The translations under genes and the position numbers were made by a program. A stretch of DNA of 64,000 bases from Candidatus Omnitrophota bacterium (GTDB lineage: Bacteria; Omnitrophota; Gorgyraeia; Zapsychrales; Zapsychraceae), in contig JAHFGL010000002.1 in assembly GCA_023247445.1 (NCBI GenBank), positions 553-64,552 of the forward strand. Direction: 5' to 3'. Below are positions 3,442 to 57,228 of the stretch, piece by piece. Position 1 is the first letter of the stretch. Every line of letters begins with the position of its first letter. Below the pieces are notes generated by a model that saw only the letters and a list, made by a program, of their open reading frames with translations, had not been told where the DNA came from and did not search any database.

Positions 3442-3626
3442 AGAGGTTGAAATAAAAACAAAAAATATAGTTGACAGGAGAGATAAAATAGGGCATAGTT
3501 ATCACGAAGTAAATGAGGGAAAGAAAGCTTTAAGCCGCAACGGTAGCGAGTATATTTGCCTTGCGGTTTTTTTATTTCCCTTAAAAAATGTTTGCTTTAA
3601 TGTTAGGAAAAGGAGGAGTCAAGAAC

Positions 3627-4933: not shown

Positions 4934-4962
4934 TTGACGCAGGCAATTTACATGTTATGGTT
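4934..4962 (+). promoter_or_regulatory. putative sigma70 promoter (TTGACG-17-TATGGT) driving a ~300-nt leader of gene 5276/5631
   Basis: Hexamers with 17-bp spacing are read directly. It is the only good promoter match in the 675-bp intergenic region. Confidence 0.4.
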
Positions 4963-4999
4963 TAAGCGCATGTATTTGCTCTTTAAAATTTAGGATTTC

Positions 5000-5230
5000 A
5001 CGAAAAGGTAAACCATTCTGCTACGTTCAAGCATTTTTATGTGTGAGCTTCGCAGAAATGCTCCTACGAAGCTCACAAACGAAAGTTTTGGAGCGAAGTA
5101 GAGCATTCGAAAGAATGGGGCACAAAGCTATAGGGCCCGAAAAGGCAGCCTAGCTACCGAAGAAATCAGGTGAACAAAATTCGGATGAACACACAAAGCC
5201 CATTCTTTAAAGAGTGGGTTTTTTTATTTG
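5000..5230 (+). promoter_or_regulatory. conserved 5'-leader element, copy A. It has a CGAAAAGGYAAACC box, a hairpin, the box GAGCGWAGTAG...GGGGCA.AAGCTA.AGG, and an AGCCTRGYTACCGAA box, followed by the terminator-like hairpin AAAGCCCATTCTTTAAAGAGTGGGTTTTTTT
   Basis: Homologous copies lie at 48754-48987 and, rearranged, at 33197-33440. Each is upstream of a giant secreted-protein gene, and each is followed by a U-tract hairpin and then the RBS. Confidence 0.6.
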
Positions 5231-5275: not shown

Positions 5276-5491
5276 ATGAACATTACAAATTTTTTACTTA
5301 ACAGATTCATTCAACGTTTGTTAATCGCAATTTTAATGACATGCTTTTTGGCTCCGGCCGCCCAAGCCCAGGCTACTGCTAATAATGATATTGATAAAGA
5401 CGGGGTCGTTAATATGGTAGATAATTGCCCCCTGGTCCATAACACATATCATAGAGAACACCAATTCAACCGCCTATGGCGATGCCTGTGA
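5276..5491 (+). CDS. signal peptide plus thrombospondin-type-3-like Ca-binding repeat (DKDGVVNMVDNCP); very likely the frameshifted 5' end of gene 5631-8489
   Basis: RBS AAAAGGAAAG. The TSP3 motif continues as ...YGDACEP in the frame of the downstream gene, which is open from 5421. Confidence 0.55.
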   Translation: MNITNFLLNRFIQRLLIAILMTCFLAPAAQAQATANNDIDKDGVVNMVDNCPLVHNTYHREHQFNRLWRCL

Positions 5492-5630
5492 GCCGCTTAA
5501 ACTGGTTGATATTCCTATAGGTGGTTTAGAAAATATCACATCGTTTCAAATATCTCCAGATTCCAGTAAAGTTGTCTATCGAAAAGGACGCGATACCGCA
5601 CAAAATTTATTTGTATCTAGTCTTGATCAA

Positions 5631-8489
5631 TTGAATCCTATCCAGGTGAATCCTTCTGTAGTCGTTAACGTTGATTCTTTTAAAATCTCGGAGAATTCGC
5701 AAAAGCTTATTTTTATTGATAGTAATCTTGGGTTACAGAGTGCCAATATGGATGGCCAATATATTGGTAGTATTAATGATACCGATAAAAGAACTAGTGA
5801 AGCCAAATTTACGCTGGCACAGGATCAAGCTATCTTTAAGTCGCTGAATAATCTTTTTGCCGTTAAATTAGAAGGAGGCGAGAATAAAAGATTGATCAAT
5901 AACCATTCTGGGTATGTTGCAGATTTTAAAATAGTTCCTTCTGATGTGCCTCAAACACCTTTTATGTATTTCTGTCTTAATAATCAAATTTTTAGAGAAC
6001 CATTACGGGAACCGTTTCAAATATTAAATGAGTTACAACTTACACCAAACAGCGAAACAGTCGCGTGCCAATTAGATAATTCTATAAAAGATGGAAACAT
6101 TTATTACATGTCCTTGGACCCTGTCGATGGTAGAGGTAATAATTTATATATGTTTTATGGTCCAGGAAGCAGTTTAATTAATGGCTCAGGAAGAGTTGAA
6201 AAGTTTGCGCTGACTCCTGATCTTTCAAGACTTGTTATGTTGGAAGGAAATTTGGCTGATCCAACTAAATTTGATATTTTAGTTCGCCATGTATCAGGTT
6301 CACCTCAATTTAGGCTCAATGCCGCCGCAACTAATATTGTAGAGAAATTTGATGCGTGGGTTGTTACGCCCGATTCAAAGAGAATAATTTATCAAGACAA
6401 TAATGCCTTATATGTAAGAAATCTCGATGATACAGCCGGAACAACTAAGGTCTTCTTATTAGGGAATCTGGCTAGTGTCGCGCAATACGCAAAGATTGTT
6501 GTAACCGCCGATTCATCCAAGATTATTTACGTTAAAGGGACGACGGCAGGGTATAGTCTTTATGCCAAAGGGTTAGATGGTTCGGCAGAACAAAAAATTA
6601 GTGGAGATATTAATATAGAAGGCAGTATTCTAAATTTTCAGGTTTCTTCGGATTCCAAAAGAGCTGTTTATCGAACAAGTAGAAATGTTCTTTATGCGGC
6701 CGAGATAGATGGAAGTTTTCAAACTAAAATCAACGCAGTTGAACATCCTGATATGAGAATTGCATCTGATTTTAGCATTTCTCCTGATTCTAAAAGGGTT
6801 GCTTATACGTCGTATCTTTTAGCGGTCGGCGGTTTTGGAGAAAATCAAACTTATAAAAAATCCATGCATACGGTGACTATTAATTCAGCTACAGTCACAC
6901 AACCTAATGCAGCCCCAGTTTGGCGTACAGTGCAGAATCAAACCAGTATATTTGGGCAGGGCAGTGTAATTTCTATACCGGTGAGTGATGAGGATTCAAG
7001 ATTATCTATAAATATCACCGCTCGTCACCGTACACGAACTGATTTACCGGCTTTGGATAGGATATATTATACGACTGCGAAGGAGTTTCCTTGGCCTGCA
7101 ACAGCCGAAGTTGGAGTATGGGATGTGACGGCAACGGCTGCAGATGCTGGCGGGTTATCCGCAACATCGAATCCTTTTACAGTTACGGTCATACAGCCCA
7201 ACCGCCCACCGGAATTTACAGATTCTACTCCTATTTCTCGAACGGTAGAGGCTGGGAAACCGATGGCTACCATTATCTTGCCGGTTAGTGATCCAGATGG
7301 AGACATTTTAGAATTTTTGGAATATTCTCCAGTAGGAACGCTCCCATCTAATAATTGCTTATTTCCAATATTTAGTAAATCAGCAACGACGCCGGTTCAA
7401 TACAAAGTTGATTGGACACCATCAACTTTGGCTTGTAATCCTGGGAACTACACCTTTAAGGTTCTCATGAGAGACCCAAGTGGGTTACCTGTGACCTCTC
7501 CAGATATTACAATCACGGTCACACAACCTAATCGTGCACCGGAATTTACAGATTCTACTCCTATTTCTCGAACGGTAGAGGCTGGGAAACCGATGGCTAC
7601 CATTATCTTGCCGGTTAGTGATCCAGATGGGGACATCTTAGAATTTGTGGAATATTCTCCAGTAGGAACGGTCCCGTCTAATAATTGCTTATTCCCAGTA
7701 TCTAGCAAATCAGCAACGACGCCGGTTCAATACAAAGTTGATTGGACACCATCAACTTTGGCTTGTAATCCTGGAAACTACGCCTTTAAGGTTCTTATGA
7801 GAGATCCTGGTGGGTTAAGTGTGGCTTCTCCAACCATTACAGTAACTGTAACTAATCCTCCTAAAACACCCGAGGTGACTATTAATGGAACGCTCGTTAA
7901 TGGAACTAAGTTTACAGCCAGCACAGTGACTGTGAGGGGTAGTTTTATTACCTCTACTAAAGTTGCGACTGGTTTTCAAGGGTTTTCCGACAAAATAACA
8001 GAAGGTAGCCCTGATGGTGCGATTATTAAAAATTGGACAAGCCTTCCAGGAAACGCGTCCCAATTCGTAAATATAGCTATTACTGCATCAGGATTTACTT
8101 CTAATCTTGTTTCGGGTAGTAAAACTTATTATCTTTCCGTCAAAGCGCAGGATCGTATGGGGATTTATAGCAGTGTTGGCTCCGCAGCGTTTAAGGTTGA
8201 CGCCGTTAAGCCAAATGCTCCCCTGATTAATACGTTAAGACCTAGTAGTGTTTCTTCAATAACTGCCCAATGGACAATTCCCACGGATATGCCATCAAAT
8301 GGCTCGGGCATTGCCGGGTATGAGTATGAATTGTATAAAGGGTCAACCAGGGCCATACCTCTTACCTCGATAGGTGTTAATCAAAAAATCTTTACAGGGT
8401 TAAGTCGAGGAGCCTACACCTTGAGAGTACGAGCAATCGATAAGGTAGGTAATGGAAGCGATTTTGTAAGTAGAAGTATAACATTGTAA
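5631..8489 (+). CDS. giant secreted protein with PD40 (TolB-like) beta-propeller repeats, 2x tandem Ig/cadherin-like (He_PIG-like) domains and fibronectin-III-like domains
   Basis: Repeated SPDSKRVAY, TPDSKRIIY and SSDSKRAVY motifs; two ~110-aa near-identical PxFTDSTPISRTVEAGKP...DPDGD modules; a C-terminal FN3-like region. The track start 5631 is an alternative start; the true N-terminus is probably at 5276 with a frameshift. Confidence 0.8.
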   Translation: MNPIQVNPSVVVNVDSFKISENSQKLIFIDSNLGLQSANMDGQYIGSINDTDKRTSEAKFTLAQDQAIFKSLNNLFAVKLEGGENKRLINNHSGYVADFKIVPSDVPQTPFMYFCLNNQIFREPLREPFQILNELQLTPNSETVACQLDNSIKDGNIYYMSLDPVDGRGNNLYMFYGPGSSLINGSGRVEKFALTPDLSRLVMLEGNLADPTKFDILVRHVSGSPQFRLNAAATNIVEKFDAWVVTPDSKRIIYQDNNALYVRNLDDTAGTTKVFLLGNLASVAQYAKIVVTADSSKIIYVKGTTAGYSLYAKGLDGSAEQKISGDINIEGSILNFQVSSDSKRAVYRTSRNVLYAAEIDGSFQTKINAVEHPDMRIASDFSISPDSKRVAYTSYLLAVGGFGENQTYKKSMHTVTINSATVTQPNAAPVWRTVQNQTSIFGQGSVISIPVSDEDSRLSINITARHRTRTDLPALDRIYYTTAKEFPWPATAEVGVWDVTATAADAGGLSATSNPFTVTVIQPNRPPEFTDSTPISRTVEAGKPMATIILPVSDPDGDILEFLEYSPVGTLPSNNCLFPIFSKSATTPVQYKVDWTPSTLACNPGNYTFKVLMRDPSGLPVTSPDITITVTQPNRAPEFTDSTPISRTVEAGKPMATIILPVSDPDGDILEFVEYSPVGTVPSNNCLFPVSSKSATTPVQYKVDWTPSTLACNPGNYAFKVLMRDPGGLSVASPTITVTVTNPPKTPEVTINGTLVNGTKFTASTVTVRGSFITSTKVATGFQGFSDKITEGSPDGAIIKNWTSLPGNASQFVNIAITASGFTSNLVSGSKTYYLSVKAQDRMGIYSSVGSAAFKVDAVKPNAPLINTLRPSSVSSITAQWTIPTDMPSNGSGIAGYEYELYKGSTRAIPLTSIGVNQKIFTGLSRGAYTLRVRAIDKVGNGSDFVSRSITL
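7190..7850 (+). repeat. near-identical tandem duplication (2 x 330 bp) inside the giant gene, encoding two He_PIG-like domains
   Basis: GGAATTTACAGATTCTACTCC... occurs at 7211 and 7541 with about 95% nucleotide identity over ~250 bp. This also duplicates antisense ORFs 7067-7306 and 7448-7708. Confidence 0.85.
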
Positions 8490-9420: not shown

Positions 9421-10636
9421 TTAGTTGGCGTAGCTTCGGCGCAAGGATGGTTGTTGCAGAAACAACAAGTAAGGTTATAACGCCTCCAACCCAAACGCAA
9501 GGAATTGTTCCAATGAGATGCGCAACAAATCCACTCTCAAAGGCCCCAATTTCATTTGAAGCTCCAATAAAGATCCATGAGACTGAGGCGACTCGCCCTC
9601 GCATATGATCTGGTGAGAAAAGTCGAACCAATGATCGTCGGATTATCATGCTAACCCCATCAAAAATTCCGCTAAATAATAGCGCAACAAATGATAGCCA
9701 GAAATTTTTGGAAAAGGCAAAGATAATGATGCTAATTCCAAAACCAGCTACACAAATTAATAGATTGCGTCCGGCACGGCGAATTGGTGGATGGTGAGTT
9801 GAGACAAGCATAATAACAAGTGCGCCAATCGCTGGAGCCGCATTAAGGATTCCTAATCCTTTGGCTCCAACATGAAGAATGTCGGTGGCAAAAATTGGAA
9901 GAAGGGCCATCGCGCCACCGAAAAGGACAGCAAATAAATCAAGCGCCATTGAGCCAATCAAAATTTGTTCGCCAAAGACAAATTTTAATCCAACGGCGAT
10001 ACTGGTAAAGATGGATTCACCACGCGTGATCGTTGGTGTCGGTTTTGGTTTAATAAAGAGCATACAAAACCATGAAAGACCAAAGACAAAGGCGATGATC
10101 ATGTACGTGATTATTGGTCCAAAGAGTTCATAAGAGAAACCAGCTAAAACCGGTCCAATGACAGAACATGAAAGCCAGGTGCTGCCGATCCAAGAGGCGG
10201 CGTTGACGGTGAGTTCCCGAGGAACAACTTGGGCTTCAAAGGCGGTTGTGGCGGGATCTGCAAAGCCTCGGGCGATTCCAGCTAAAAAAATTACACCATA
10301 CAGCGCTAAGACGCTTGCGGCATCGGCATCACGCGAAATTATCGCGAGCAACAAGGCACAGATTACGGAAACTATTCGAGCAAGCAAAAGAATTAATCGC
10401 CGATCAGTGCGATCCGCAACATAGCCACCTAAAAGCGATAAAGAAATAGCTGGAATCGCCTCAACTAATCCCAACCATCCTAAGGCCAGTGGACTTTTGG
10501 TTAATTGATAAATTTGAAAGCCGATGACCACAGCGACGGCACGGCTGGCCAAGGTAAAGAGGGAGATGGATCCTAAAAATAATTTTACTTCAGGAAGTCT
10601 TAAAGAAGCTAATGGGTGATGGTTAGTGTCGGTCAT
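9389..10636 (-). CDS. MFS transporter (12 TM)
   Basis: 415 aa, hydrophobic throughout, with MFS-like motifs (GYVADRTDRR after TM2). Confidence 0.8.
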   Translation of the reverse strand: MTDTNHHPLASLRLPEVKLFLGSISLFTLASRAVAVVIGFQIYQLTKSPLALGWLGLVEAIPAISLSLLGGYVADRTDRRLILLLARIVSVICALLLAIISRDADAASVLALYGVIFLAGIARGFADPATTAFEAQVVPRELTVNAASWIGSTWLSCSVIGPVLAGFSYELFGPIITYMIIAFVFGLSWFCMLFIKPKPTPTITRGESIFTSIAVGLKFVFGEQILIGSMALDLFAVLFGGAMALLPIFATDILHVGAKGLGILNAAPAIGALVIMLVSTHHPPIRRAGRNLLICVAGFGISIIIFAFSKNFWLSFVALLFSGIFDGVSMIIRRSLVRLFSPDHMRGRVASVSWIFIGASNEIGAFESGFVAHLIGTIPCVWVGGVITLLVVSATTILAPKLRQLTLDPHKFPLR

Positions 10637-33108: not shown

Positions 33109-33196
33109 TAGAAGAGGGTTTTAGAGCCTTTTTAAGAAAGGGTTTTCACGAAGGTTGATTTACACCCTTGTAAAAAGCTTAATGTAGTGTAATCTT

Positions 33197-33440
33197 TTAT
33201 TAGAAATATTTATCGATCTTTTAATAATTATTTTTGACGAAAAGGCAAATTGTCAGTAATGACAAGACGCAAAACCAAAGGGTCCTTTTAAAGAGGATAG
33301 CCTAGTTACCGAATCAAGATATGAAAAGTTTAGAATACAATATAAACCTATTTTTTAATTATATGAGCTGAGCTTATATTTTTAAGGAGTAGGTTTTTTT
33401 ATTGGCAGGAGGGGCTAATTAGAATCAAAGCATTAAAAAA
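33197..33440 (+). promoter_or_regulatory. conserved 5'-leader element, copy B (rearranged/divergent): CTTAATGTAGTGT, GACGAAAAGGCAAA, GATAGCCTAGTTACCGAATC, then a U-tract hairpin before the RBS
   Basis: Shares the boxes of copies A and C; lies upstream of the NHL giant gene. Confidence 0.5.
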
Positions 33441-33458: not shown

Positions 33459-36400
33459 ATGAGAAAAAATTTCGCAACTAAGTTACAAAGAATCTTAAGT
33501 ATGAATGTGGCGGTATTTATTTTATTAATTTATTCAGGGGTTTCTTCCTCTGTAAGCACATTTAACTTACGTCATGTTGGCTCGACCCCGATCGAAATTG
33601 TTGTCAGTTGGGATCAGGTCTCTAATGCAGAGAAATACATCTTACAGCGAAGCACCAGTTCCTCATTTAATCCTGTGGATGCTGAATTTCAGTTTTCCAA
33701 AACAATTTTAGCTTATGGAGACACGGGCCATAGTAATCCAGCTGAGCCTATGCGGTTTAAGGAAAGGGAAAAATCACTCTTATTATTGTCTCCTGAGGTG
33801 GATTATTATTATCGGGTTTTCGCTTATGATCTTAATAATAATCTATTAGCGGAAAGTACGTCTGTATTTGCTAAGCCAGACGCTGGATCCCTAACAGATG
33901 CTTCAGGGCAGAGACCTGTTATTGAAGGAGATCTTCGAGCTGATATTGTCCTTGGGCAACCTAATTTTCTTGAGTTTAATGAGCTTCAACCAAATGCCAA
34001 TGGTGGCGTCAATATCGGAGGAGTTGTCGTTGATAAATCAATTCCTGGGCAAGATCGTTTATATATACTTGATGCAAATCATAATCGTGTTTTAGGTATG
34101 CCTTCAATCAATCCGGATTCTGGTGCTACTTCAGCTACGATTGTTTTAGGGCAACCAAATTTTGAATCGGCAGCATGTAATGGCGATATGACCTACGACG
34201 GTTATCCTACTAAAAGAAATCCAAAAGAAGATACTTTATGTTTTGCTGAGCCGGGCGAAAAGAGTCCTAGAGAAGTCGTGGTTTGGTCAATCATGAGTGT
34301 TGATTTGGATGGTAATTTGTATGTCGCAGACTTCTTAAATCAACGTGTTTTAAAGTATGTAAAGCCATTTGAAACAAATATGGTTGCAGATGAGGTTTGG
34401 GGGCAAGGAGAAGGTGTGGATAAGTTTACATCCAATACTTGTAATAAAGAAGGGCTCAGTGCTTCGTCTCTTTGTTTGCTTAAAGGATTTCCTATGGATC
34501 ATATGACGGCCAGTGTTCATATCGACCGAAATGGTAATTTATGGGTTGTGGATTTAGGTAATCGTAGAGTTTTAAGATACCCAAAAATTGGCAATGAAAT
34601 TTCTAAGATAGCGGATTTGGTTTTGGGTCAGGATAATTTTACGACCATCAAAGAAAACATCCCTGTTGATAGTCTTAAGTATTTGTATTACCCAAAATTT
34701 GTTGTCAGCGATGAGTCATCAGGGGACATTTATGTAGGCGATCAAGGAGATGAAACTCATCCTACGAGGATTTTAAAGTATGCTGCAGAAAATATTCCAT
34801 TAGCAGGACAAGGTGGAGAGAGTGCATTAACTGCTCAAGAGATTATATTTGGAAATACTTCTACGTTACCAAATCAGACAAACAATCATTGGCGAATTAC
34901 TAGCTTATCCTATGATTCGACAAGGCATGGCCTGTGGATTCAGGCAGAGGGGAAGAATTATCTTTATAATTTTTTAAATAATAGTGTAACTAAAATTGTT
35001 CTCTCTGGATATGACCCCCGGGGAGTGGATGTTGATTCTAGGGGAAATCTTATCACTGTAGGATCCTATGATGACCTTCGTGATGTCAATTTATTTTTGG
35101 CAACGGATATTGATAACGTAAATGTAACTGCTCAGAACCCTCTCACTTCAGATAATAGAAAGAATATTTTTAGAACTGGCCCTTCATTAGTGATGGATCA
35201 CGGGTTAAGTGGTTTAAAGAATGTTACTGGGTTGACTATTGCTGGGAATCAGTTGGTAATTAGCGATTTTGGTCGACTTCTTTTTTGGAATGATTACCGT
35301 ATTCTTTCTACAGGTCAATCAGCCGATGGGGAATGGGCTTATGGTTATGATAAGAATATGGCTTCTCCAAGAGTCGATGCGCAAAATAGATTGTGGTTTT
35401 CAAGTCTTTTGCCACTTAATTCGGATGTTCCCACTCAAGGTGAAAATTGTTCAGAAGAGTCTTGCCTGCATGCGGTGTTGCTTCCTCTGGCACCCGACTC
35501 ATCTTTAGTTAAGAGTTTTCCAATAAATAAAGTTGAATTACGAGCTAAAAGAAAATTTATGACTGGCATTGAATATCAGGATTTTATACGGTTTTATCCA
35601 TCAACGGATCGAAGTGGAAATGGGGTTTTATGGATTGCTACACACAATAAAGGTGTATTTCGTTTAGTAAATATTAATAAAGAAAAGGATGCGAGTCGTG
35701 GTCCATATGTTGATGTTGTCTTGGGTCGGGCAAATAAGTTAGATCAGGTCTGTTCTTCTGAGGCAGGTTATAATCCAACCGCCAGTACTATCTGTAACGC
35801 TAATGATGTCCGTGTTGATTCGGAAGGGAATGTATGGGTTGTCGATAAACCTTACGGAGAGGATGAGGAATTTACTAGATTACTTATGTTTTCATCTATT
35901 TCGATTCCTGATTCTGATGATATTCGCCATGAAACAGTGTTTGGCATTCCAGCTTCTAAGGTCTATGGGACCGGAGGTGATTTTCTGCGCCGAACGAATC
36001 CAGAATTAGATGTTGATGCGAGCCCTTTTGTTCCATCTATTTCGACAGAAAAAAGATCAATGATATTAGATACTCATTATGATGACTCAATCTTTCCTTT
36101 GGTTTATTTAGATTATGATAATGTCAATATCCCGCAATTTTCTCTAGGAGACGCAACTATGTTTGGCATTGATTCTACCTTTGATCCCGAGGGTAATTTT
36201 TATATGGGGGACAAGGTTTGGAATCGTGTGCTTATTTATAAAAAGCCGTTACTAAACGTTACCAAATATAATCATCCTCCTCAATTAAATATGCCCAATC
36301 AGATTCCTGTTATTGAAGGGGTAAATATTTCATTTCAAGTAACGGGTTATGATTTAGATGGAGACATATTTACTGTTTCTGCAAACGGATTGCCTTTAGG

Positions 36401-37367
36401 GGCGCATTTTGACCCTGTAACTCGACGATTTGACTGGACGCCCACATTGGAGCAAGCTGGCACTTATCAAATTACCTTTCAGGCCTCTGACACAAAAGGG
36501 GGCATTTCCACAAACAGCATTTCGATCACCGTAATAGATAGTGTGCTTTTATCGCCAAGTAATTTGTCGGCTAGGACATTGAATACACCGGTTGTTGGAT
36601 TAACTTGGGTTGATAATTCTAATTGTGAAAATTCTTTTAGTATTGAGCAAAGCGTGGATGGAATTAATTATCAAGTGGTGGGAAGTGCCTCTGCCAATAC
36701 TACCTCTTATAATGTACAACCGAGCGTAATGAACCAAACTCTTTATTATCGTGTTCGAGCTATGCGAGGCAGCATGGGATCAGACCCTTCTGATGCGATT
36801 GCTGTTAATGATCCTCTCTATGTAAAAGTAGTCGAAAAAGGAACAGGGACTCCTTTGGCGTTTATTCAGGTATCTTTGCGGGGAGTAAGAGCAAGTGATG
36901 GGAAATTAATTAAAGTTCAAGGACTGACGGACGCTGATGGCTATGTTGTTTTAAGAAACGTAACTTCTCCGAAATTCAATTATCGAGTAAGGGGTAAAGC
37001 GATAAGACTCGAAGCGAAGTATCAAATCAAGACCATGACCGTTACAGATATCAATCACCTTATTTCTATGGAAGGAGCATTAAGTGGCGTTGGTCAGGGT
37101 TCTCAAACCGGTCAATTTACTTTAGATGGATATGTTACTAGCTCGGATGAAACTTTTGCGATTGCCGACGCGGAAATTGCATTGATACAACTAGATGGGG
37201 CCAAGATTCGTTTAACGGTCAGAAGCGGTAGTGATGGATATTTTGCATTTAATAATTTGAAAAATGGTCGGTATAGGGTTGTGGTTACTAAAAAGGGTTA
37301 TCGATTTAATGAGCAGACAGATATTATTAATAATGAAAACTTCGAGATGAATTTTATAGCGAAATAA
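33459..37367 (+). CDS. giant secreted NHL-repeat beta-propeller protein with He_PIG Ig-like domain, FN3 and C-terminal CarboxypepD_reg-like domains
   Basis: GNLYVADFLNQRVLKY and GNLWVVDLGNRRVLRY NHL blades; the HPPQLNMPNQIPVIEG...DLDGD Ig-like module; C-terminal beta-sandwich repeats. The start is taken at ATG 33459 (RBS AGGTGGGG). Confidence 0.8.
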   Translation: MRKNFATKLQRILSMNVAVFILLIYSGVSSSVSTFNLRHVGSTPIEIVVSWDQVSNAEKYILQRSTSSSFNPVDAEFQFSKTILAYGDTGHSNPAEPMRFKEREKSLLLLSPEVDYYYRVFAYDLNNNLLAESTSVFAKPDAGSLTDASGQRPVIEGDLRADIVLGQPNFLEFNELQPNANGGVNIGGVVVDKSIPGQDRLYILDANHNRVLGMPSINPDSGATSATIVLGQPNFESAACNGDMTYDGYPTKRNPKEDTLCFAEPGEKSPREVVVWSIMSVDLDGNLYVADFLNQRVLKYVKPFETNMVADEVWGQGEGVDKFTSNTCNKEGLSASSLCLLKGFPMDHMTASVHIDRNGNLWVVDLGNRRVLRYPKIGNEISKIADLVLGQDNFTTIKENIPVDSLKYLYYPKFVVSDESSGDIYVGDQGDETHPTRILKYAAENIPLAGQGGESALTAQEIIFGNTSTLPNQTNNHWRITSLSYDSTRHGLWIQAEGKNYLYNFLNNSVTKIVLSGYDPRGVDVDSRGNLITVGSYDDLRDVNLFLATDIDNVNVTAQNPLTSDNRKNIFRTGPSLVMDHGLSGLKNVTGLTIAGNQLVISDFGRLLFWNDYRILSTGQSADGEWAYGYDKNMASPRVDAQNRLWFSSLLPLNSDVPTQGENCSEESCLHAVLLPLAPDSSLVKSFPINKVELRAKRKFMTGIEYQDFIRFYPSTDRSGNGVLWIATHNKGVFRLVNINKEKDASRGPYVDVVLGRANKLDQVCSSEAGYNPTASTICNANDVRVDSEGNVWVVDKPYGEDEEFTRLLMFSSISIPDSDDIRHETVFGIPASKVYGTGGDFLRRTNPELDVDASPFVPSISTEKRSMILDTHYDDSIFPLVYLDYDNVNIPQFSLGDATMFGIDSTFDPEGNFYMGDKVWNRVLIYKKPLLNVTKYNHPPQLNMPNQIPVIEGVNISFQVTGYDLDGDIFTVSANGLPLGAHFDPVTRRFDWTPTLEQAGTYQITFQASDTKGGISTNSISITVIDSVLLSPSNLSARTLNTPVVGLTWVDNSNCENSFSIEQSVDGINYQVVGSASANTTSYNVQPSVMNQTLYYRVRAMRGSMGSDPSDAIAVNDPLYVKVVEKGTGTPLAFIQVSLRGVRASDGKLIKVQGLTDADGYVVLRNVTSPKFNYRVRGKAIRLEAKYQIKTMTVTDINHLISMEGALSGVGQGSQTGQFTLDGYVTSSDETFAIADAEIALIQLDGAKIRLTVRSGSDGYFAFNNLKNGRYRVVVTKKGYRFNEQTDIINNENFEMNFIAK

Positions 37368-46541: not shown

Positions 46542-46612
46542 ATAAATCTCATCTTTCTTGCTGAAGCATAATGAGGATGATGATATTATGTTTTCATTAA
46601 CTGGGAGCGGAT

Positions 46613-47029
46613 ATGTCTGATCATGTAAAAATTGTCAACCAATACAAAAACATCTTAAAATGTTTCTTTATTTTCATATTTAGTGTCATTTTGTATATGG
46701 CGGTTATTGTTACACAGTCAGAAGAAGTGTTTGTTAACTCAGTTTCCTTTTATATGTTTTTTGGCCATTATCTGATTCTGTTATTTTTGATCTTAACCTT
46801 TGCGATTGTCATCACGGCGCGGCTTTACCGTCTTTCTAAATTACTTTATGAAGTTAATCTGATCAGCCTTAAGCCAACCTTTGTGATGTTGGGATATATC
46901 TTGTCTTTTGCTGCACCACTACTCCTAAAACCTCGCATTGCTATTTGCATTCTGCCCGCAACATTTTTATCCTATCTTATGGCCTTCTGGGTGTTGGGAA
47001 ATAAATATTTAAAGATTTTACCTAAATAG
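46613..47029 (+). CDS. small polytopic membrane protein (138 aa); its last ~24 codons form copy 1 of the 72-bp direct repeat
   Basis: Four hydrophobic segments; ends ...FLSYLMAFWVLGNKYLKILPK. Confidence 0.55.
   Translation: MSDHVKIVNQYKNILKCFFIFIFSVILYMAVIVTQSEEVFVNSVSFYMFFGHYLILLFLILTFAIVITARLYRLSKLLYEVNLISLKPTFVMLGYILSFAAPLLLKPRIAICILPATFLSYLMAFWVLGNKYLKILPK
46957..47029 (+). repeat. 72-bp direct repeat, copy 1 (the native 3' end of the membrane-protein gene)
   Basis: CGCAACATTTTTATCCTATCTTATGGCCTTCTGGGTGTTGGGAAATAAATATTTAAAGATTTTACCTAAATAG. Confidence 0.85.
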
Positions 47030-47105
47030 AAGAGAAGAAGTCGGAAAGTATGACTTGATATACTATTTAACTTGTGGCATACTTTGTAAGGAGGAGGGAA
47101 ATAAT

Positions 47106-47372
47106 ATGACTATTACAAAACTAAAAACCAAGAATCAAATTACAATTCCTGCACTAATCGTCAAGCGCCTGGGTATTAAGCCCAATGAACTATTCTCTGT
47201 GGATATAAAGGATAATTACATCATCTTGATGCCTGTTCATATGGAGCCGAAATATAGTGTTGAGGAATTAAATGCCATCGATGGCATTGTTGAAAAAGAG
47301 AAAAAATCAGCTAAAAAATTAAAAGCAGGAGGAGAATTCTCTAGCTATCTTAAAGGATTGGCTAAGAAATGA
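47106..47372 (+). CDS. AbrB/MazE (SpoVT-AbrB fold) antitoxin
   Basis: MTITKLKTKNQITIPALIVKRLGIKPNELFSV, a swapped-hairpin AbrB-type motif; RBS AAGGAGGAGGG; overlaps the toxin gene. Confidence 0.7.
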   Translation: MTITKLKTKNQITIPALIVKRLGIKPNELFSVDIKDNYIILMPVHMEPKYSVEELNAIDGIVEKEKKSAKKLKAGGEFSSYLKGLAKK

Positions 47373-47656
47373 AATACGTTGTCCCGCTATCCTCTTTTGA
47401 AAGATTCTTCAAGAAACTTAATACCAAGGAGCAAGATTTAGTCAGGGATGGTTTATCCAAATTTAATGAATTCTTGGTGTCAGGGCAATTCTCATCTGGG
47501 CTTGGATTTAAGAAGATTAATCATGATAAATACGAATTTCGAATTAATATCCGCTTAAGGGTTATTTTAAAGCTAGAAGGAGATATCTTTTATTTGGTCT
47601 TAGTTGGCAATCATGATGATGTTAGAAAATATTTAAGAAATTATAGGGGAAAATAA
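47369..47656 (+). CDS. RelE/ParE-superfamily toxin
   Basis: 95 aa ending ...YEFRINIRLRVILKLEGDIFYLVLVGNHDDVRKYL. Confidence 0.65.
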   Translation: MKYVVPLSSFERFFKKLNTKEQDLVRDGLSKFNEFLVSGQFSSGLGFKKINHDKYEFRINIRLRVILKLEGDIFYLVLVGNHDDVRKYLRNYRGK

Positions 47657-47692
47657 TACTCCAAGATTCTGCTTAGCTTTTTTCATTCTTTT

Positions 47693-47764
47693 CGCAACAT
47701 TCTTTCCTATCTTATGACCCTCTGGGTATTGGGAAATAAATACCTAAAGACTTTACCTAAATAA
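47693..47764 (+). repeat. 72-bp direct repeat, copy 2 (an orphan in-frame 3' fragment ...LMTLWVLGNKYLKTLPK*)
   Basis: About 88% identical to copy 1; retains an open frame and the stop codon. Confidence 0.85.
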
Positions 47765-47868
47765 TATTAGTTCTTTCATGAATATCCTGAATATAGTTCT
47801 GTGAAAAAGTCTAATTTATGGTATATTTTTAATAAACGTAGATAGTCACCGACAAGGAGTTAAAGACT

Positions 47869-48093
47869 ATGAAGAAGAATATTTCCATGTCTGAAGTCTT
47901 AAAATTGAGTGTGGCCGAGAGAATTCAATTAGTGGAAGATGTTTGGGATAGTATTGCTGCAATTCCTGAGGCCGTACCATTAACGTCAAAAGAAAAAGCA
48001 GCGCTTGACCTTCGGTTAGAGGCTTATCATAAAAATCCTTCGGCAGGTTCTCCCTGGCGAGAAATTAAGAAAAAGATTCTTTCCCAAGCATGA
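47869..48093 (+). CDS. addiction-module antitoxin (TIGR02574-like, pairs with ParE/RelE toxins)
   Basis: LSVAERIQLVEDVWDSIA...LTSKEKAALDLRLEAY motif; RBS AAGGAG. Confidence 0.65.
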   Translation: MKKNISMSEVLKLSVAERIQLVEDVWDSIAAIPEAVPLTSKEKAALDLRLEAYHKNPSAGSPWREIKKKILSQA

Positions 48094-48260
48094 AGTACTC
48101 CGTTGTTATTCGCCCTGAAGCAGAGGCTGATCTACAAAATACCTTCGAGTGGTACGAAGAACAAGAAAAAGGACTTGGGTTAGAAGAGCACAGGATTGTT
48201 GTTCTTGCTGTTTTACATGTAAGACGACATCCAATACGTTGGAAGAAAAGAACACAATAG
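48090..48260 (+). pseudogene. internally deleted ParE/RelE-like toxin remnant (56 aa)
   Basis: MKYSVVIRPEAEADLQNTFEWYEEQEKGLGLE|EHRIVVLAVLHVRRHP. The N-terminal and C-terminal signatures are present but the ~40-aa middle is missing; ATGA overlap with the antitoxin. Confidence 0.55.
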
Positions 48261-48538: not shown

Positions 48539-48580
48539 TCAACCCCAGCGCGAAGTTAGCTCTGGGGTTGATTTTTTTTA
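48539..48580 (+). terminator. rho-independent terminator (CAACCCCAGCGCGAAGTTAGCTCTGGGGTTG + T8)
   Basis: Read directly. Confidence 0.75.
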
Positions 48581-48753: not shown

Positions 48754-48986
48754 AACGACAAAGGCAAACCTATCGTAAGGTAGGGACCCCTACTTCGCCA
48801 AATACTTAATGTGTTTGGCTTCGTAGGGCTCTACGAAACTCAATGCGAAAGCAATTGAGCGTAGTAGGGGCAAAGCTAAGGATCCCAATGAGGACAGCCT
48901 GGTTACCGAATCTAAAATCTAGTAGTTTGTTTAAAACCTATCTTTCCGTAGGGAGGGATGGGTTTTCTTTTTTTATAGGAGGTCAA
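48754..48986 (+). promoter_or_regulatory. conserved 5'-leader element, copy C
   Basis: The boxes CGACAAAGGCAAACC, CTTAATGTGTTTGGCTTCGTAGGGCTCTACGAAACTCA, GAGCGTAGTAGGGGCAAAGCTAAGG and AGCCTGGTTACCGAATC are collinear with copy A. The track ORF 48843 runs through it in frame, but the real start with signal peptide is ATG 48987. Confidence 0.6.
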
Positions 48987-51731
48987 ATGAAAAGAATATT
49001 ACTGAGTATCAGTTTTGTGTGGACAGTCATGGCTTCTCTATTATTAGGCCAGGTCGCCCAAGCCTATCAGGATGTTAAAGTAGAAGGTGGGCAATTAGTG
49101 GCGGATTTTGATCACGATGGTCTTTATCATCCCTATTTTATCAAAGGGGTTGATTATAGTCCTTATCCTATCGGCCGTTATCCAAGTGATTTAGGATGGC
49201 CTGACGTTAAAGATCCACGACCAGATAATATTTTAGATGACCCCGCTATTTTGGAAAGAGACTTTAAATACCTTCAAGCAATGCATGCGAATACAATTCG
49301 TATTGTAAAAGGCGATGATACGTCCATGGTTGTTAAGGCCGGTGAGCCAGCTCGTTTTCCTGTCAAATTGACACAGTATACTTTAGATATGGCAAAGAAA
49401 AATGGTTTGAAAGTTATCGCTGGATTTGCCGTCGATAATGAGAAGGTATTAGATTGGAATCTTAATTCTAATAACCCGAAATATTCTGTTCCAATTGATT
49501 TTACGAATGAGGATGTTAAAAAAGATATTAGGACACGTTTTGAAAAATATGTAAGAAGTTTTACAGATACTTCAGCGATTTTAATGTGGGCCTTAGCGGA
49601 TGGAAATAATTTATATATTACGGATCCTAAACAGCTAAAGGCATTTTATTCTTTGATGAACGAATTAGCTGGGATAGCGCATACAGTTGAAACCCAAAGT
49701 GATAGCGTTCACCCCGTCGCATTAATTAATTTTGAGGTGGGAAATCTTGATCAGGTTGCTTTGGGTACAGATGATGTGTCGATGAGTAATATTGATATTT
49801 GGGGAATGAATGCCATGCGCGGGATTTCCTTCGGTAATTTATTTGATGATTATAAAAAGTTTTCTAAGAAACCTTTGTGGTTCGCCACATTTGGTACAGA
49901 TGGGTGGAATACAACTAATCTCAGTAATCCCAAACAAGGGAACGAAGATTCTAAAACACAAGCCAATTGGGATACGCATTTGTGGGATGAAATCGCGGCT
50001 CACAAAGATGTGACCATCGGCGGAACAATTGCTGAATATTCTGATGAATGGTGGCGAGGAGCTGACCCTGATTGTATTCAAAAAGATAAGCAGAATGAGA
50101 AGTGCGCGCTACAACACGATTATTCTGGATTTGGTCCAAAGGAATTAGGCTGTGATATAAAAAATCCATCTGTTTGCGTTGGAAGCCCCGATTATTTTAT
50201 TAACTTAGAATGGTTTGGTTTGATGTCGGTTGAATTGAATCCTGTTAAGTATGGCGCCGATATTTTAAAACCTCGTCAAGCATATACTGATTTACAAGGT
50301 AAATTTGCGTTGGAAAAAATTGAAGGGACCATTCTTGATAAGACCGCTCAGAACAGTGCCAGCGGCTTAAAAGAAGTAGATGTGACTATCGAAGATGACA
50401 ATGGCGAAATTTTACAAACAGTAAAAACTGATGCGAATGGCCATTATGAGAGTAGCCTTTTAAAACATGGCAAGTATTATGTTCGCCCAGTTTTGCCTCA
50501 TTATGCATTTTATCAAAATGGAAAAACGGTCGAGTATTCTGAGGTGGAATACAAGGTTGATCAATCATTTGGACACGTCGATTTTACCGCCATACAAACA
50601 CAACAAATGATCCAAGGGCAGGTTTTGGATGTTGGACTTAATGCTAATCTTGGACTAAGTAATGTTTTCATTAGTGTTACAAGTATAGAGGGGGCATTGC
50701 TGGAGACGGTCTTAACAGATTCGCAAGGCCATTTTAAAACAAGTTATTTTAATCATGGCTCTTATATGGTTCGGCCTCAATTGCGACATTATAGTTTTTA
50801 TCAAGACGGCAAAGCCATTTCCGCCCTTAATGTTGTTTTGAAAGCGGGGGAATTATCAAAGCCGATTTATTTGGAAGCAGCGCAAACGCAGTATCAGGTG
50901 GAAGGAAATGTTGTTGATATTACAGATTTAAGAAAAACAGTGAACCTGGCCCACGTAAAAGTTAATATTATGAGCAATGGTCGACGGGTTGATATTGCCA
51001 GAACCGATGACCAAGGACACTTTAAGTCGATCTATCTGTCGGTGGGTAACTATACATTTGTGCCAGAATTAGGAAAGTATAAATTTTATCCTAAGAAACA
51101 GGATGTGAATATTGCGCGCGGTATTAAACCCAAGGCCATGAACTTTCAAGCGGATCAATTAGTCGCCGCCTTAAGTGGATATGTTTTAGAAAATGGTTCA
51201 GGTAAGCCCATTGTTGGGGCCAAGGTTACCGTTCGCGGCAAACGCCACGCTGATGGTAAGAATATTGTGATGAGGGTTCTTACGGATCAAAATGGTTATT
51301 TCAAAATTTATAATCTGACGGAACCAAAGAAATTATATCGTGTCATTGCGAAGTATCAAAAAGGCACAACGCGGTATAAATTTCCTAAGATAAAGATTAC
51401 GAATCTTGCCTCGCCACTAACGATCGAAGGGGTGCTCAATAAAGAGAAGAAACCTGCAACAGCCGGGGATTTGGATATTATGGGAACCATTACCTCAAAT
51501 GACGAAGAATCTAATGCTGGTCTTTCGGATGTTCAGGTAGTGCTTAAGGAAAAGAAAGGTAATCGCGTGGTTTTGATTACGCGCAGCGATGACGATGGAT
51601 TCTTTACCTTTGAAAACCTTTTGCCAGGCGAATATATAGTGGAAGCCAGTGCCAAAGGTTTCCAATACGACCCCGTCGCACCTATTACACTTGTTGATGA
51701 CATTGATTCATTAGAAATTCATAGAAAGTAG
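48987..51731 (+). CDS. secreted glycoside-hydrolase-like (clan GH-A TIM barrel?) protein with five CarboxypepD_reg-like C-terminal domains
   Basis: Signal peptide MKRILLSISFVWTVMASLLLGQVAQA (RBS GGAGG); FIKGVDYSPYP...WALADGNNLY...LWFATFGTDGW TIM-barrel-like region. The expected NEP/GNE acid reads GNN. Five internal repeats of the type TD.QGHFK...HG.Y.VRP.L.HY.FYQ.GK. Confidence 0.7.
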   Translation: MKRILLSISFVWTVMASLLLGQVAQAYQDVKVEGGQLVADFDHDGLYHPYFIKGVDYSPYPIGRYPSDLGWPDVKDPRPDNILDDPAILERDFKYLQAMHANTIRIVKGDDTSMVVKAGEPARFPVKLTQYTLDMAKKNGLKVIAGFAVDNEKVLDWNLNSNNPKYSVPIDFTNEDVKKDIRTRFEKYVRSFTDTSAILMWALADGNNLYITDPKQLKAFYSLMNELAGIAHTVETQSDSVHPVALINFEVGNLDQVALGTDDVSMSNIDIWGMNAMRGISFGNLFDDYKKFSKKPLWFATFGTDGWNTTNLSNPKQGNEDSKTQANWDTHLWDEIAAHKDVTIGGTIAEYSDEWWRGADPDCIQKDKQNEKCALQHDYSGFGPKELGCDIKNPSVCVGSPDYFINLEWFGLMSVELNPVKYGADILKPRQAYTDLQGKFALEKIEGTILDKTAQNSASGLKEVDVTIEDDNGEILQTVKTDANGHYESSLLKHGKYYVRPVLPHYAFYQNGKTVEYSEVEYKVDQSFGHVDFTAIQTQQMIQGQVLDVGLNANLGLSNVFISVTSIEGALLETVLTDSQGHFKTSYFNHGSYMVRPQLRHYSFYQDGKAISALNVVLKAGELSKPIYLEAAQTQYQVEGNVVDITDLRKTVNLAHVKVNIMSNGRRVDIARTDDQGHFKSIYLSVGNYTFVPELGKYKFYPKKQDVNIARGIKPKAMNFQADQLVAALSGYVLENGSGKPIVGAKVTVRGKRHADGKNIVMRVLTDQNGYFKIYNLTEPKKLYRVIAKYQKGTTRYKFPKIKITNLASPLTIEGVLNKEKKPATAGDLDIMGTITSNDEESNAGLSDVQVVLKEKKGNRVVLITRSDDDGFFTFENLLPGEYIVEASAKGFQYDPVAPITLVDDIDSLEIHRK

Positions 51732-51908: not shown

Positions 51909-54900
51909 ATGAACAAGATTAACTGCTGCCAAAGCCGCAATATTTTTTTACCCGTTTTAAGTTTTATAATATTTTCCTTTGCCCTTTTGTTTAGCGTAAA
52001 TTCTCAGGCCGCAGAGTTTCATGTCACCAAATGCGATGATCTTCGGTATGTTAATGCTCATCTCCAGGATACAATTATTCTTGACAATGATATTGATTGT
52101 AAAGGTCCAGCTATTTTGTGGCCGATTGGCTTGAATGCATTGCCAAATGGTTTTCAGGGAACATTTAATGGCCAAAATCATACGATCAGTAATATTACAT
52201 TGTCTATGTATAAAAACCCGGGTGAGCTAATGCCGGCCGGATTCTTTGCTGCTACCTCAGGGGCTACGATTTCTAATTTGAATTTAGATAATATCAGTGT
52301 AGTAGGTAACAGGTGCGTTGGAGCTTTGGTTGGGAATGCTGCTGGTGGAACCATAACTAATGTTATTGTAACTGGAAAAATCAGCGGACCTAAGTTTGGG
52401 GCCGATGCTAATCCACAGGCGGTTGGTGGGTTAGTTGGATGTAATAGTGCGACAATTTCACAGTCTGCTACTTACGTTATCGTTGAGGGTGGGAATACCA
52501 TGGGAGGATTAGTTGGGATTAATGATGCCGGAGGAAATATTACGCAGAGTTTTGCTAATGGTCGAATTGATGCCAATGCTGCAATTAATTGGGATGACAC
52601 TGACGTATTAGGTGGATTAGTTGGTAATAATAATGGAGGGTCGGTAACGGATTCATATGCAATGGTTCGTGGATTTTTATTAAAGGCTCAAGCTGCCATT
52701 AAATATGTTTGGGGAGGATTTGGTGGCAATAATAGTGGAAGTAATACGAATACTTTTGCGACTCATGGTTTTAAACGAGGTAGCTTTACCCAGACTGACG
52801 GAATTAATTGGGATGATACTGATGTGTTATCGGGAGGATTGGTAGGGACATCAAATAACATGCCAGTCAGTTCTTTTTGGGATATTCAATTAAGTGGCCA
52901 TAATACCAGCGCTGGTGGGGTTGGCAAGACAACAGTGGAGATGAAACAACAATCCACTTATCAGAATTGGGATTTTGCACAAAATTGGTCAGCCTGTGAA
53001 GGGAAAGATACTCCAGTTTTGCAATCGAGTGGGGTCGGATGTGCATCTCCTGTTCTTCAAAATACTTTACTTGATCCCGATCAAACCTCTGGAACTCAGA
53101 CAGAAACTTCTTTTGGTAAGAAGGTAGCTATTGATGATAATATTTTGGTAGTAAGTGATACCGGTGATCGTGGGTATAATCAAGGGGCGGTTTATATATA
53201 TAGAAAAAATAACGATCAGTGGTCATTAGCCAATACTATTTTTCCTACCGATGGAGTAAATTTAGAATATTTCGGACATGAATTTTTCTTAGAAGGGAAT
53301 TTATTATATGTATTTAAAACAACGCAAACAAGAACAGTCAAAGATGTTTATACTTTTATTTATTCGAAAGAAACAGGACAATGGCAACAAATAAAGAAGC
53401 AAACTCTTAATCTCGGGACAGGAAGTGATAATTATTTGACAGCAGTAACTAGTAACATGCTAGCCATTCGTTCTTTGTCGAGCAGTTCTCGAAATATAAA
53501 AATTTTCGAAAATGGGCCTACGGGCTGGCAATTAATATCTACCATAACGCCGGTAGCATCAATGACTGCAAGTATTAACGCAGATATTGATGGTGATAAC
53601 GTTGTTGTTCGAACTTTAGACTATAGTGGTCTTGCGCGTATTTACATTTATACTAAAACAGGTCAGTTAAAACAGGTCATTCAAGATCCTTTGCTTTCCA
53701 ATTATTTTGGAAACACGGTATCTTTAAATGGTGATACCTTGGTCGTTTCTTCTGGTCGAGGAGATTGTACGTCATCACCTAAACCTCTTCCTTCAGTTTA
53801 TAAATATGCTGGAACCCAATGGAGTTTCGTTCAGCGTTTATATGAACGTGGAACTTCGTTAATAGAGGCCAATTCCGTGATTGATGATTTTAAGGATGGT
53901 AATATTGTTATTACTTATCCATGGGCAGCGGGATGTTTACCTCCTAACACAGGTGCAATTGCTCGGCCTACAGCTGGAGTTAATGTTTATCAAAATAAAA
54001 ATGGTCAATGGAAACCAGCATACAGTTTAGATATTCCTGACCAGAGCACTAGTGGTCCTGTAGCGGCGGTAAGTGGAAATACTCTGGCTGTTGGTTCTTT
54101 TAATAGTGGTCTTTCCGCGAATAAGATCTTAGTTTATTCGTTGGGTGGAGAGAATAAGGGAAAAATTAAGGGAACTGTTAGAGATTCTCAGGGAAATCCA
54201 AGTTTAGGAGCTACCGTTGAGATTAGTGGTCCTTCAGGGGTAGTAACTTTAACCACAGGTCTCTTTGGGCAATATGAAACGGCATTCTTATCTGCAGGGA
54301 CTTATCAGGTAACAGCTAAGAATTCAAACCATACTTTTAATCCTCCAACTAGTTCTGTAACTATTCCTTCCAATGATACGTTTGTTGACTTTACTGAGGA
54401 GATGACACAAGGCACTAAAATTCAAACAACGGTTAAGAACACTTCAAATCAAGGGGTTTCTGGTATCGTTGTTAAGATTCAGCAAGGCAGTAATGTTTTA
54501 GAATCAGGATTAACGGATGCTAGTGGCATTTATACGTCGGCCAACACCTATGCACCCGGATCTTATGATGTCGTTGTGTCAAGCGCCCAATATTGCTTTA
54601 CGCCGATTCTAAATTCTCAACCAATCACAATTCCTGCGCAAAGTTCACCTACGGTGTCAGCGAATTTTACGGCGTATAATTTGTTGGTGGGGAAATTGGT
54701 GGATTCTGCTGGTCAGCCGATTGCGGCGGCCAAGATATATCTGAGAGGGACAACATCATCATTCGGGACTGATGCTAACGGATATTTTTATGTTCCAGAT
54801 AATAGCACTACGCGATCTCTCCCGTATAGATTTTATAAAATGATGAAGCCTTCCGGTGGATGGTATAGTTTCGGTCCGGATGTGTTTGTCTATAGTAAAC

Positions 54901-56868: not shown

Positions 56869-57228
56869 ATGGAGAAGATTAAAAATTTTAAAGAATTGAG
56901 GATATGGCAGAAAGGGATAGAAATTGTTAAAGATGTTTATTCGATGACCAAAGATTTTCCCAAAGAAGAATTGTATGGTTTAACAAGTCAAATGAGACGC
57001 TCTGCAATTTCAATACCATCTAATATTGCCGAAGGATTTAAAAGATTTCATGATAAAGAGTATAAGCAGTTTTTGCATATCACTTTAGGATCTGCTGCTG
57101 AATTAGAAACACAGATTATTATCTCTAAGGAACTTAATTTTATAGACCAAGAGAAGTTAGATAACATTCTAGAAAAATTAGATCATTTGGCCAAAATGAT
57201 TTCTTCTCTTTTAAATAAAATACAATAA
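56869..57228 (+). CDS. four-helix-bundle protein (23S rRNA intervening-sequence protein family, TIGR02436-like)
   Basis: MEKIKNFKELRIWQKGIEIVKDVY...ELYGLTSQMRRSAISIPSNIAEGF...GSAAELETQ, the canonical 4HB signature; ~119 aa from ATG 56869. Confidence 0.8.
   Translation: MEKIKNFKELRIWQKGIEIVKDVYSMTKDFPKEELYGLTSQMRRSAISIPSNIAEGFKRFHDKEYKQFLHITLGSAAELETQIIISKELNFIDQEKLDNILEKLDHLAKMISSLLNKIQ

Follow-up and report, generated by a model that had tools for sequence, protein, structure and literature searches.

Three leaders in a 64,000-nucleotide (nt) stretch of DNA from a Candidatus Omnitrophota bacterium (contig JAHFGL010000002.1 of assembly GCA_023247445.1, positions 553 to 64,552 of the forward strand; this whole 64-kb stretch is called the window below) are, in our reading, class I riboswitches for cyclic di-GMP (c-di-GMP-I, or GEMM-I; Rfam family RF01051), each ahead of a gene for a large secreted or surface protein. 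Copy B has a canonical aptamer, and copies A and C have aptamers that carry a folded domain of 82–87 nt and would switch through an antiterminator; we put the probability of this reading at roughly 85%. The ligand is predicted to be c-di-GMP because the motif belongs to the known c-di-GMP-I class. With the class itself known, the unusual feature is the structured insert shared by A and C, and what is new here is limited to this insert-bearing structural variant and an unusual switching strand.

The leaders lie roughly where the original prediction had drawn them (5000–5230 for A, 33197–33440 for B and 48754–48986 for C) and ahead of the genes it had named, and the sequence blocks it described are real and restricted to them: word, Rfam and covariance-model searches found no extra copy in the window. 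For example, the 3' block AGCCTRGYTACCGAA occurs three times (at 5147, 33299 and 48896, all on the + strand), compared with a chance expectation of 0.14 in the window, and none of 100 shuffles reaches three. The hairpins it listed are present as well (GAGCTTCG/CGAAGCTC at 5045–5052/5067–5074 in A, and TTCGTAGGGCTCTACGAA at 48820–48837 in C). Another block, GAGCGWAGTAG, is confined in a window search to A (5091) and C (48857); these two leaders are sister copies and clearly paralogous duplicates. We judge correct the architecture then proposed, i.e. an aptamer, an intrinsic terminator and a start codon, as a riboswitch for the joint control of secreted or surface proteins. The motif, which was not recognised at that point as a known riboswitch class, does belong to one: RF01051 (gathering score 35 bits) matches B with 63.5 bits and A with 44.8 bits, and C has a match at the level of the clan.

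The GEMM-I core of the three leaders

In the Rfam scan of the window, copy B is matched over 33234–33313 (E = 4e-10) and copy A over 5087–5161, an alignment that leaves out the conserved block at 5000–5014. The shared blocks are the GEMM-I core: AAAGGYAAA (the G20 equivalent, the 2-bp stem and the AAA loop), G(A/G)C-(G/A)C-AAA-GC, and AGCC..G.U.CCGAA. All elements of the original GEMM description (a 2-bp and a 6-bp stem, a 3-nt internal loop, a GNRA cap, an AAA linker and P2; PMC1950547) are found, in full in B, and in A and C once the insert is spliced out. The hairpin loops of the latter two are GAAA (A) and GUAA (C), their junctions are GGC (A) and GAC (C), and the AAA linker between P1 and P2 is present in three out of three copies.

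The unconstrained minimum free energy (MFE) structure of copy B (33234–33313, + strand; first hairpin UUGUCA-GUAA-UGACAA at 33250–33265, P1 extending to ~33232–33318) is the GEMM-I fold. This copy had been described as rearranged, with a shared TTAATGT block out of order; we rejected that description, as B is simply a compact canonical aptamer without the A/C insert, and TTAATGT is a chance 7-mer at 33179, outside the RNA, found 21 times in the window against 17 expected.

Copies A and C contain the same parts, also on the + strand. In A, the 5' part of the core (5000–5012) holds the P1 5' strand (C5001/G5002), the 5' strand of the 2-bp stem (G5008/U5009) and the AAA internal loop; the first hairpin, which is the 6-bp part of GEMM P1, is CAUUC-GAAA-GAAUG with a GNRA loop (5104–5117), and the 3' part (5118–5162) consists of the junction GGC, the 3' strand of the 2-bp stem (A5122/C5123), the AAA linker, P2, ACCGAA and the P1 3' strand. 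In C, the 5' part (48755–48787) runs from the P1 5' strand through the 5' strand of the 2-bp stem (G48764/C48765), AAA and the first hairpin (CCUAUC-GUAA-GGUAGG, 48769–48784) to the junction GAC, and the 3' part (48870–48911) holds the 3' strand of the 2-bp stem (G48870/C48871), AAA, P2 and ACCGAA.

The core is supported by covariation, which the original prediction had proposed as a check. We aligned A and C (inserts spliced out) with B and the two aptamers of L086, a related Omnitrophota contig, and RNAalifold recovered the GEMM-I fold from these five aptamers, with the 2-bp stem, the 6-bp hairpin and P2 all retained. Nine out of 18 core pairs are compensatory, including the GU:AC of copy A (G5008/U5009 with A5122/C5123) versus GC:GC in the other four aptamers, and the P2 pairs are maintained with both compensatory and one-sided changes.

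We take G20, A47 and C92 of the Vc2 riboswitch to be the ligand-contact bases, on the basis of its crystal structures. Their equivalents are G5007, A5124 and C5157 in A, G33244, A33271 and C33309 in B, and G48763, A48872 and C48906 in C; in A and C the second lies in the AAA after the 2-bp stem and the third in ACCGAA. Every copy has G, A and C at the three positions, and therefore fits c-di-GMP and not the cGAMP variant: position 20 has a role in ligand specificity, being G for c-di-GMP and A in the variant for c-AMP-GMP (cyclic AMP-GMP, or cGAMP; GEMM-Ib) (PMC9481103). With AAAGGYAAA as the 5' half, three out of three copies have G at the position-20 equivalent, and GEMM-Ib specificity was rejected on this ground; an A would stand there only in the alternative register that Rfam gives copy A. 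Membership in c-di-GMP-I-GGC (RF03167, gathering score 59 bits) was rejected too: that family is marked by a G immediately following the 2-bp stem (GCGAAgC in its consensus, against GCAAAgC), the base at this position is A in all three copies (ACAAAGC, GCAAAAC and GCAAAGC), and copy C scores 33.1 bits.

The comparison with known members gives the same picture. Vc2 of V. cholerae and Cd1 of C. difficile share with the window copies the core AAAGGYAAA...GNRA hairpin...GAC-GC-AAA-GC...AGCC..G.U.CCGAA, the P1/P2 fold and the contact bases, and the class at large shares with them the position in the 5' untranslated region, the frequent use of terminator platforms and the association with extracellular or surface functions. 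In the window, three out of three copies precede genes for signal-peptide-bearing repeat proteins, and the arrangement is the same in L086. Two features set A and C apart from these known members: the folded domain at the P1 internal-loop junction, and a predicted switching strand that is the 3' strand of the first hairpin and not part of P2 or P1. Tandem c-di-GMP-I riboswitches (PMC4759541, PMC9481103) have long c-di-GMP-responsive leaders with repeated GEMM-like blocks and resemble the window leaders in this respect, but each window leader has a single AGCC...ACCGAA 3' half and a single Rfam match; a tandem arrangement was therefore rejected, and A and C are taken as single interrupted aptamers.

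The inserted domain of copies A and C

The insert is a homologous folded domain that is placed where the 2-bp stem of GEMM P1 meets the 6-bp stem. It interrupts an otherwise contiguous P1, with 5013–5102 on the 5' side of the junction in A and 48788–48869 on the 3' side in C, and because it lies at the internal junction of P1 we class A and C as variants. The order of elements is GGUAAA-CCAUUCU-insert-hairpin-GGC-AC-AAA in A and GGCAAA-hairpin-GAC-insert-GC-AAA in C. The consensus fold of the two inserts has a 7-bp closing stem, a stem with the GAGCG block, a conserved hairpin, a GAAA-capped hairpin and an unpaired UUWAUGUGU. In A (5016–5102, + strand) these are the closing stem 5016–5022/5096–5102, the second stem with the GAGCG block, the hairpin GAGCUUCG...CGAAGCUC, the GAAA-capped hairpin and the unpaired UUUAUGUGU; in C (48788–48869, + strand) the closing stem is CCCUACU/AGUAGGG, and inside it are two to three hairpins, including UUCGUAG-GGCU-CUACGAA and a GAAA-capped one, and the UUAAUGUGU block. 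Four out of 25 insert pairs are compensatory between A and C, and the complete leaders A and C fold far below shuffled controls (z = -5.7 and -5.1, respectively). When the full aptamers of A and C are aligned with MAFFT, the 5' block of A is paired with the 3' half of the first hairpin of C; the 5' halves are thus misregistered, and this alignment was excluded from modelling.

Searches for this domain elsewhere returned little. Scans of the insert regions against Rfam by E-value gave noise only and no family, so the insert is not a known aptamer. In 730 kb of sequence, a covariance model of the insert matched A and C and none of the related and metagenomic loci; the model was built from the + strand and scores 100 and 98 bits on the sense strand versus 53 and 42 on the antisense strand, a difference that is expected of the model's own strand and is at most weak support for a + strand RNA. 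The pattern AAGGYAAA..GAGCGNAGTAG..CAAAGC had 13 matches in 185,579 reference genomes, scattered over phyla and none of them GEMM-I (two are cobalamin riboswitches and the rest are chance matches). In the original GEMM paper (PMC1950547) and the reviews searched, we found no description of an inserted or nested domain in GEMM-I. The sequence of the window insert, as far as its distribution in these searches indicates, is lineage-specific.

Insertions at this junction, in contrast to this particular sequence, are found in other lineages. A looser metagenome search for GEMM-I 5' and 3' blocks 110–140 nt apart gave 70 loci (metagenomic and related loci are labelled L below), most of which, as we read the matched segments, are real GEMM-I aptamers with long extras. 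In the family of L019, L022 and L028, in L047 and L068, in L067 and in L073, additional hairpins separate the first hairpin from GC-AAA-GC, at the junction used in copy C. Like A and C, these aptamers combine an intact core with extra hairpins at the junction; unlike them, they have no sequence similarity to the window insert. Extra hairpins in such unrelated lineages mean that junction insertions in GEMM-I recur in nature; the central junction of GEMM-I can accommodate large folded domains, in the window and in several unrelated metagenomic lineages. The L019 family is misregistered by Rfam in the way that copy A is, and as covariance models miss or misregister insert-bearing aptamers, metagenomic counts of GEMM-I are probably underestimates.

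The L019 family is a set of near-identical loci (L019, L022, L027, L028, L030, L034, L035, L038, L039, L043, L048, L052, L056, L057, L071, L072, L078, L083 and L084; the aptamer is at 529–669 of L019, minus strand). Its two extra hairpins are simple and lack a closing stem, and its 3' half is duplicated (AGCCGGGUUACCGCAC...AGCCGGGUUACCGAAG), which allows two alternative P2/P1 closures; the Rfam alignment of the family runs via the second hairpin and leaves out the true AAAGGCAAA block.

Our best guess is that the insert serves as a peripheral scaffold or tuning domain, and should it affect ligand binding or switching, it would show how a riboswitch core can be elaborated by modules in nature. 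It is unlikely, although conceivable, that the insert is a second module, either a nested sensor of another ligand or a protein, or a device in which 5' halves or first-hairpin strands compete; A and C would then be two-input or specificity-switching riboswitches, and, together with the metagenomic aptamers that have junction inserts, would form an as yet unrecognised four-way-junction subclass that is under-detected by the current Rfam models. Two alternative 5' halves can be written for A (AAAAG-GU-AAA versus GCGAA-GU-AGA). Copy A also has, seen in the sequence, CCAUUCU at 5013–5019 (+ strand), which duplicates the 5' strand of the first hairpin, overlaps the closing stem of the insert and could pair over a long range with 5113–5118, at -30.2 kcal/mol versus -32.4 kcal/mol for the local form. 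A pseudoknot between UUWAUGUGU and the linker was rejected, as a complementary ACACA is present in A and absent from C.

Repetition inside these leaders extends further. The purine-rich blocks ACGAAAAGGUAAAC, UCGUAAGGUAGGGAC and GAGCGWAGUAGRG resemble each other and the GEMM 5' half (4999–5014, 48772–48787, 5091–5104 and 48857–48871), and ~190 nt of leader C contain GUAGGG four times and CCUA(U/C)-like strands three times, giving many possible alternative pairings.

Terminators, predicted switching and alternative readings

The original prediction had a hairpin and a U-tract after each copy, 40–60 nt before the ribosome-binding site. A terminator scan confirms the hairpin and U-tract for A and C. 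In A, the intrinsic terminator (5195–5225, + strand) has a 12-bp stem followed by a U-tract (scan hairpin 5195–5222, U-run to 5225); in C (48933–48974, + strand) it has a 15-bp stem of -20 kcal/mol (scan hairpin 48933–48966, U-tract to 48974). In B, the simple scan made no call, and the probable intrinsic terminator is an AT-rich bipartite long hairpin with seven U's that is seen in the MFE fold only (33344–33400, + strand; -22.8 kcal/mol). The spacing is as described for A and B, but not for C, where the U-tract ends 3 nt before the ribosome-binding site AGGAGG. A gap of 22–33 nt lies between each aptamer and its terminator, so that the two do not overlap.

In both A and C, the 5' arm of the terminator finds its best partner within the aptamer. 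In A, the strand AAAGAAUGGG (5110–5119, + strand), which runs from the GAAA loop (its 3' part) through the 3' strand of the first hairpin to a junction G, is perfectly complementary over 10 bp to 5199–5208; the duplex has -14.2 kcal/mol, the same as the terminator hairpin, and only 16 out of 1000 shuffles reach the energy of this duplex. In C, the best partner of the terminator 5' arm (48937–48944) is 48777–48784 (+ strand), i.e. two A's of the loop plus the 3' strand of the first hairpin, with -10.1 kcal/mol. The strands themselves differ between A and C (CCAUUCU versus CCUAUC), and the antiterminator relationship is maintained. When folding snapshots end at the terminator 5' arm (5209 in A; 48947 and 48951 in C), the antiterminator is the MFE structure in both copies; full-length A and C RNAs have the terminator plus the hairpin, and an enforced aptamer fold of A is compatible with the terminator.

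We propose that, during transcription of A and C, the terminator 5' arm would pair with the 3' strand of the first aptamer hairpin as an antiterminator. Binding of c-di-GMP would lock the first hairpin in the folded aptamer, so that the terminator could form and transcription would halt; genes A and C would then be OFF at high c-di-GMP. This direction is deduced from the terminator 5' arm pairing best with an aptamer strand, and on these folding models we favour it slightly over other outcomes.

Several points weigh against the reading as a whole. Copy A passes the Rfam threshold only through an alignment that takes the GAGCGAAGUAGAG block, and not the better-conserved ACGAAAAGGUAAAC, as the 5' half. 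Copy C is under every Rfam gathering score; its match in a sensitive E-value scan, to RF03167 of the same clan (33.1 bits, local E = 3e-6, 48754–48911), needs 88 nt inside the first hairpin to be skipped. The insert is known from just two paralogous sequences, its inner topology is ambiguous between a three-way and a four-way junction, and it lies 5' of the first hairpin in A but 3' of it in C. The energy of the copy C antiterminator is not significant (184 out of 1000 shuffles), the first hairpin is a stable local hairpin that an antiterminator would have to invade, and copy B showed no aptamer-linked alternative pairing in a partner search with the terminator arm and in folding. Domain searches of the window found no GGDEF, EAL or HD-GYP genes. 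Both the ligand and the direction of switching are predictions.

The most serious alternative keeps the class and reverses the direction: c-di-GMP binding would block termination, a direction that would fit surface or adhesin-like proteins if these are made when c-di-GMP is high. We consider such an ON switch possible but the less probable direction. Many platforms in the original GEMM paper are of the ON type (PMC1950547), copy B has no antiterminator involving the aptamer, and CCGAA of copy A (5157–5161) could pair with UUCGG (5180–5184), by which the linker may act as an anti-antiterminator; yet no complementarity between linker and terminator was found in A, an aptamer strand is the best partner of the terminator 5' arm in both A and C, and the terminators, 22–33 nt away, do not overlap P2 or P1 as in the ON design of PMC1950547. 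An adhesin offers a c-di-GMP-I precedent: the Bc2 riboswitch of Bacillus thuringiensis controls a collagen adhesion protein, whose gene is reported to be strongly repressed in the parent strain, which by itself does not give the direction of Bc2 (PMC4933901). Bc1, of the same species, has a long expression platform with two terminators (PMC11218506). Bc2 and Bc1 resemble the window copies in joining a c-di-GMP-I aptamer to terminator platforms, and Bc2 also in its target, a large cell-surface adhesion protein; they differ from A and C in belonging to another phylum and in having compact aptamers with no inserted domain.

Decay of A and C, with an insert that breaks the binding core and leaves constitutive or otherwise regulated attenuators, is quite unlikely. 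The insert does interrupt the junction of the ligand pocket, C is under all Rfam thresholds, and the frameshift in gene A (see below) suggests that its locus may be decaying; against this, A and C keep all the highly conserved core bases, the 2-bp stem of A has the compensatory GU:AC, the insert brings its own closing stem so that the core strands can still meet, and unrelated metagenomic GEMM-I aptamers with hairpins at the same junction keep intact cores. Far less probable is a DNA-level element, i.e. a small mobile repeat, or a promoter or operator region that was duplicated, which the original prediction had raised as a fallback and which the clear paralogy of A and C might recall: pairing is preserved by compensatory changes, strand and position relative to the genes are fixed, the matches come from covariance models that score structure, and there are three copies in 64 kb and none in the 730 kb of related and metagenomic loci. 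The least probable reading of all is the undescribed class with another ligand that was first proposed because the motif was not recognised; the A/C blocks are indeed absent from Rfam, and the proposal is refuted by the RF01051 and clan matches and by the GEMM-I core and fold that appear when the insert is removed. We thus retain c-di-GMP-I riboswitches, with a probable OFF switch in A and C.

Regulated genes, relatives and neighbouring features

The regulated proteins combine signal peptides with Ig-like, NHL, CarboxypepD_reg and SdrD_B repeats; calling them giant, as was done at first, is an overstatement, as they have ~910–1,300 amino acids (aa). Gene A (5276–8489, + strand) encodes a signal peptide, a thrombospondin-type repeat and Ig-like, PD40 and Y_Y_Y domains, and its frame is broken once near 5440–5490: frame 5276 encodes the signal peptide and the first part of a 'DNCP...' repeat, which resumes ('...YGDACE') in the +1 frame. 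Callers of open reading frames split the gene into 5276–5491 and 5631–8489; the break is either an assembly error or a sign of a pseudogene. Gene B (33459–37367, + strand; 1,302 aa) has NHL, He_PIG/Big_9 and CarboxypepD_reg domains, and one gene caller starts it at GTG 33441. Gene C (48987–51731, + strand; 914 aa) has an N-terminal domain (homologues carry Glyco_hydro_2_C matches), CarboxypepD_reg and SdrD_B repeats, and is probably co-transcribed with the large gene that follows it (51909–54935).

These genes lie between conserved anchors (GalT, GAPDH and the type II secretion system (T2SS) operon) that are closer together in relatives. The best matches of the T2SS ATPase (55122–56819) have 72–75% identity, and the named ones are from Candidatus Omnitrophota/Omnitrophica; the contig itself is part of a metagenome assembly (ENA ERZ27296333) and of an NCBI metagenome-assembled genome. 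The related contig L086 has two canonical GEMM-I aptamers on the minus strand (9511–9602 and 3484–3575; 64.2 and 59.4 bits), upstream of genes for 1,714 and 1,511 aa that adjoin the T2SS operon; a clear terminator follows the second aptamer (AAACCUAUUCG...CGAAUAGGUUUUUUU), whose 5' arm begins AAACCUAU, as in window copies B and C. The association between GEMM-I and large genes therefore reaches beyond the window: in the little-studied candidate phylum Omnitrophota, c-di-GMP-I riboswitches stand ahead of genes that encode large secreted or surface proteins and neighbour a T2SS operon, which implies that c-di-GMP signalling may govern the cell-surface repertoire of these bacteria.

Other relatives differ. 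Three (L087, L089 and L092) have no large-protein genes in the matching interval upstream of the T2SS operon, and an Rfam scan of L087 and L089 found no GEMM-I. The closest homologues of protein C have 44–47% identity over half its length, and the loci of two homologues (L014 and L015) have short upstream regions with no GEMM-I. A close Omnitrophota relative (L091) has at 7255–7328 a divergent GEMM-like leader (22.5 bits, sub-threshold) followed by terminator-like hairpins. The AAA/GAC internal loop is missing from this leader (GACGACAAAG-CC-hairpin-GG-AAAGCC...CUGCCGAA), and the gene downstream of it, next to the T2SS operon, encodes a 742-aa FG-GAP/Big_9 protein.

Promoter-like sites were found ahead of two leaders. 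The one near copy A (4934–4961, + strand; TTGACG, a 16-nt spacer and TATGGT, with TG before the second hexamer) is a weak match (9/12) to the consensus; it might start transcription ~30 nt ahead of the aptamer, but three such sites were found near copy A against 1.4 expected, so the evidence is weak. That near copy B (33201–33228, + strand; TAGAAA, a 16-nt spacer and AATAAT) also matches the consensus weakly. Upstream of leader C, a hairpin with a U-tract (CAACCCCAG...CUGGGGUUGAUUUUUUUU, ~48541–48580) closes the preceding unit, and this terminator-like hairpin suggests that leader C has its own promoter.

Between the gene for an M11 peptidase and leader C (~46600–48100), there are small genes with matches to MazE-antitoxin and Unstab_antitox. 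The small gene between T2SS E and F (56869–57228) has precomputed matches to 23S_rRNA_IVP and bAvd, the latter a four-helix-bundle family that includes accessory proteins of diversity-generating retroelements.

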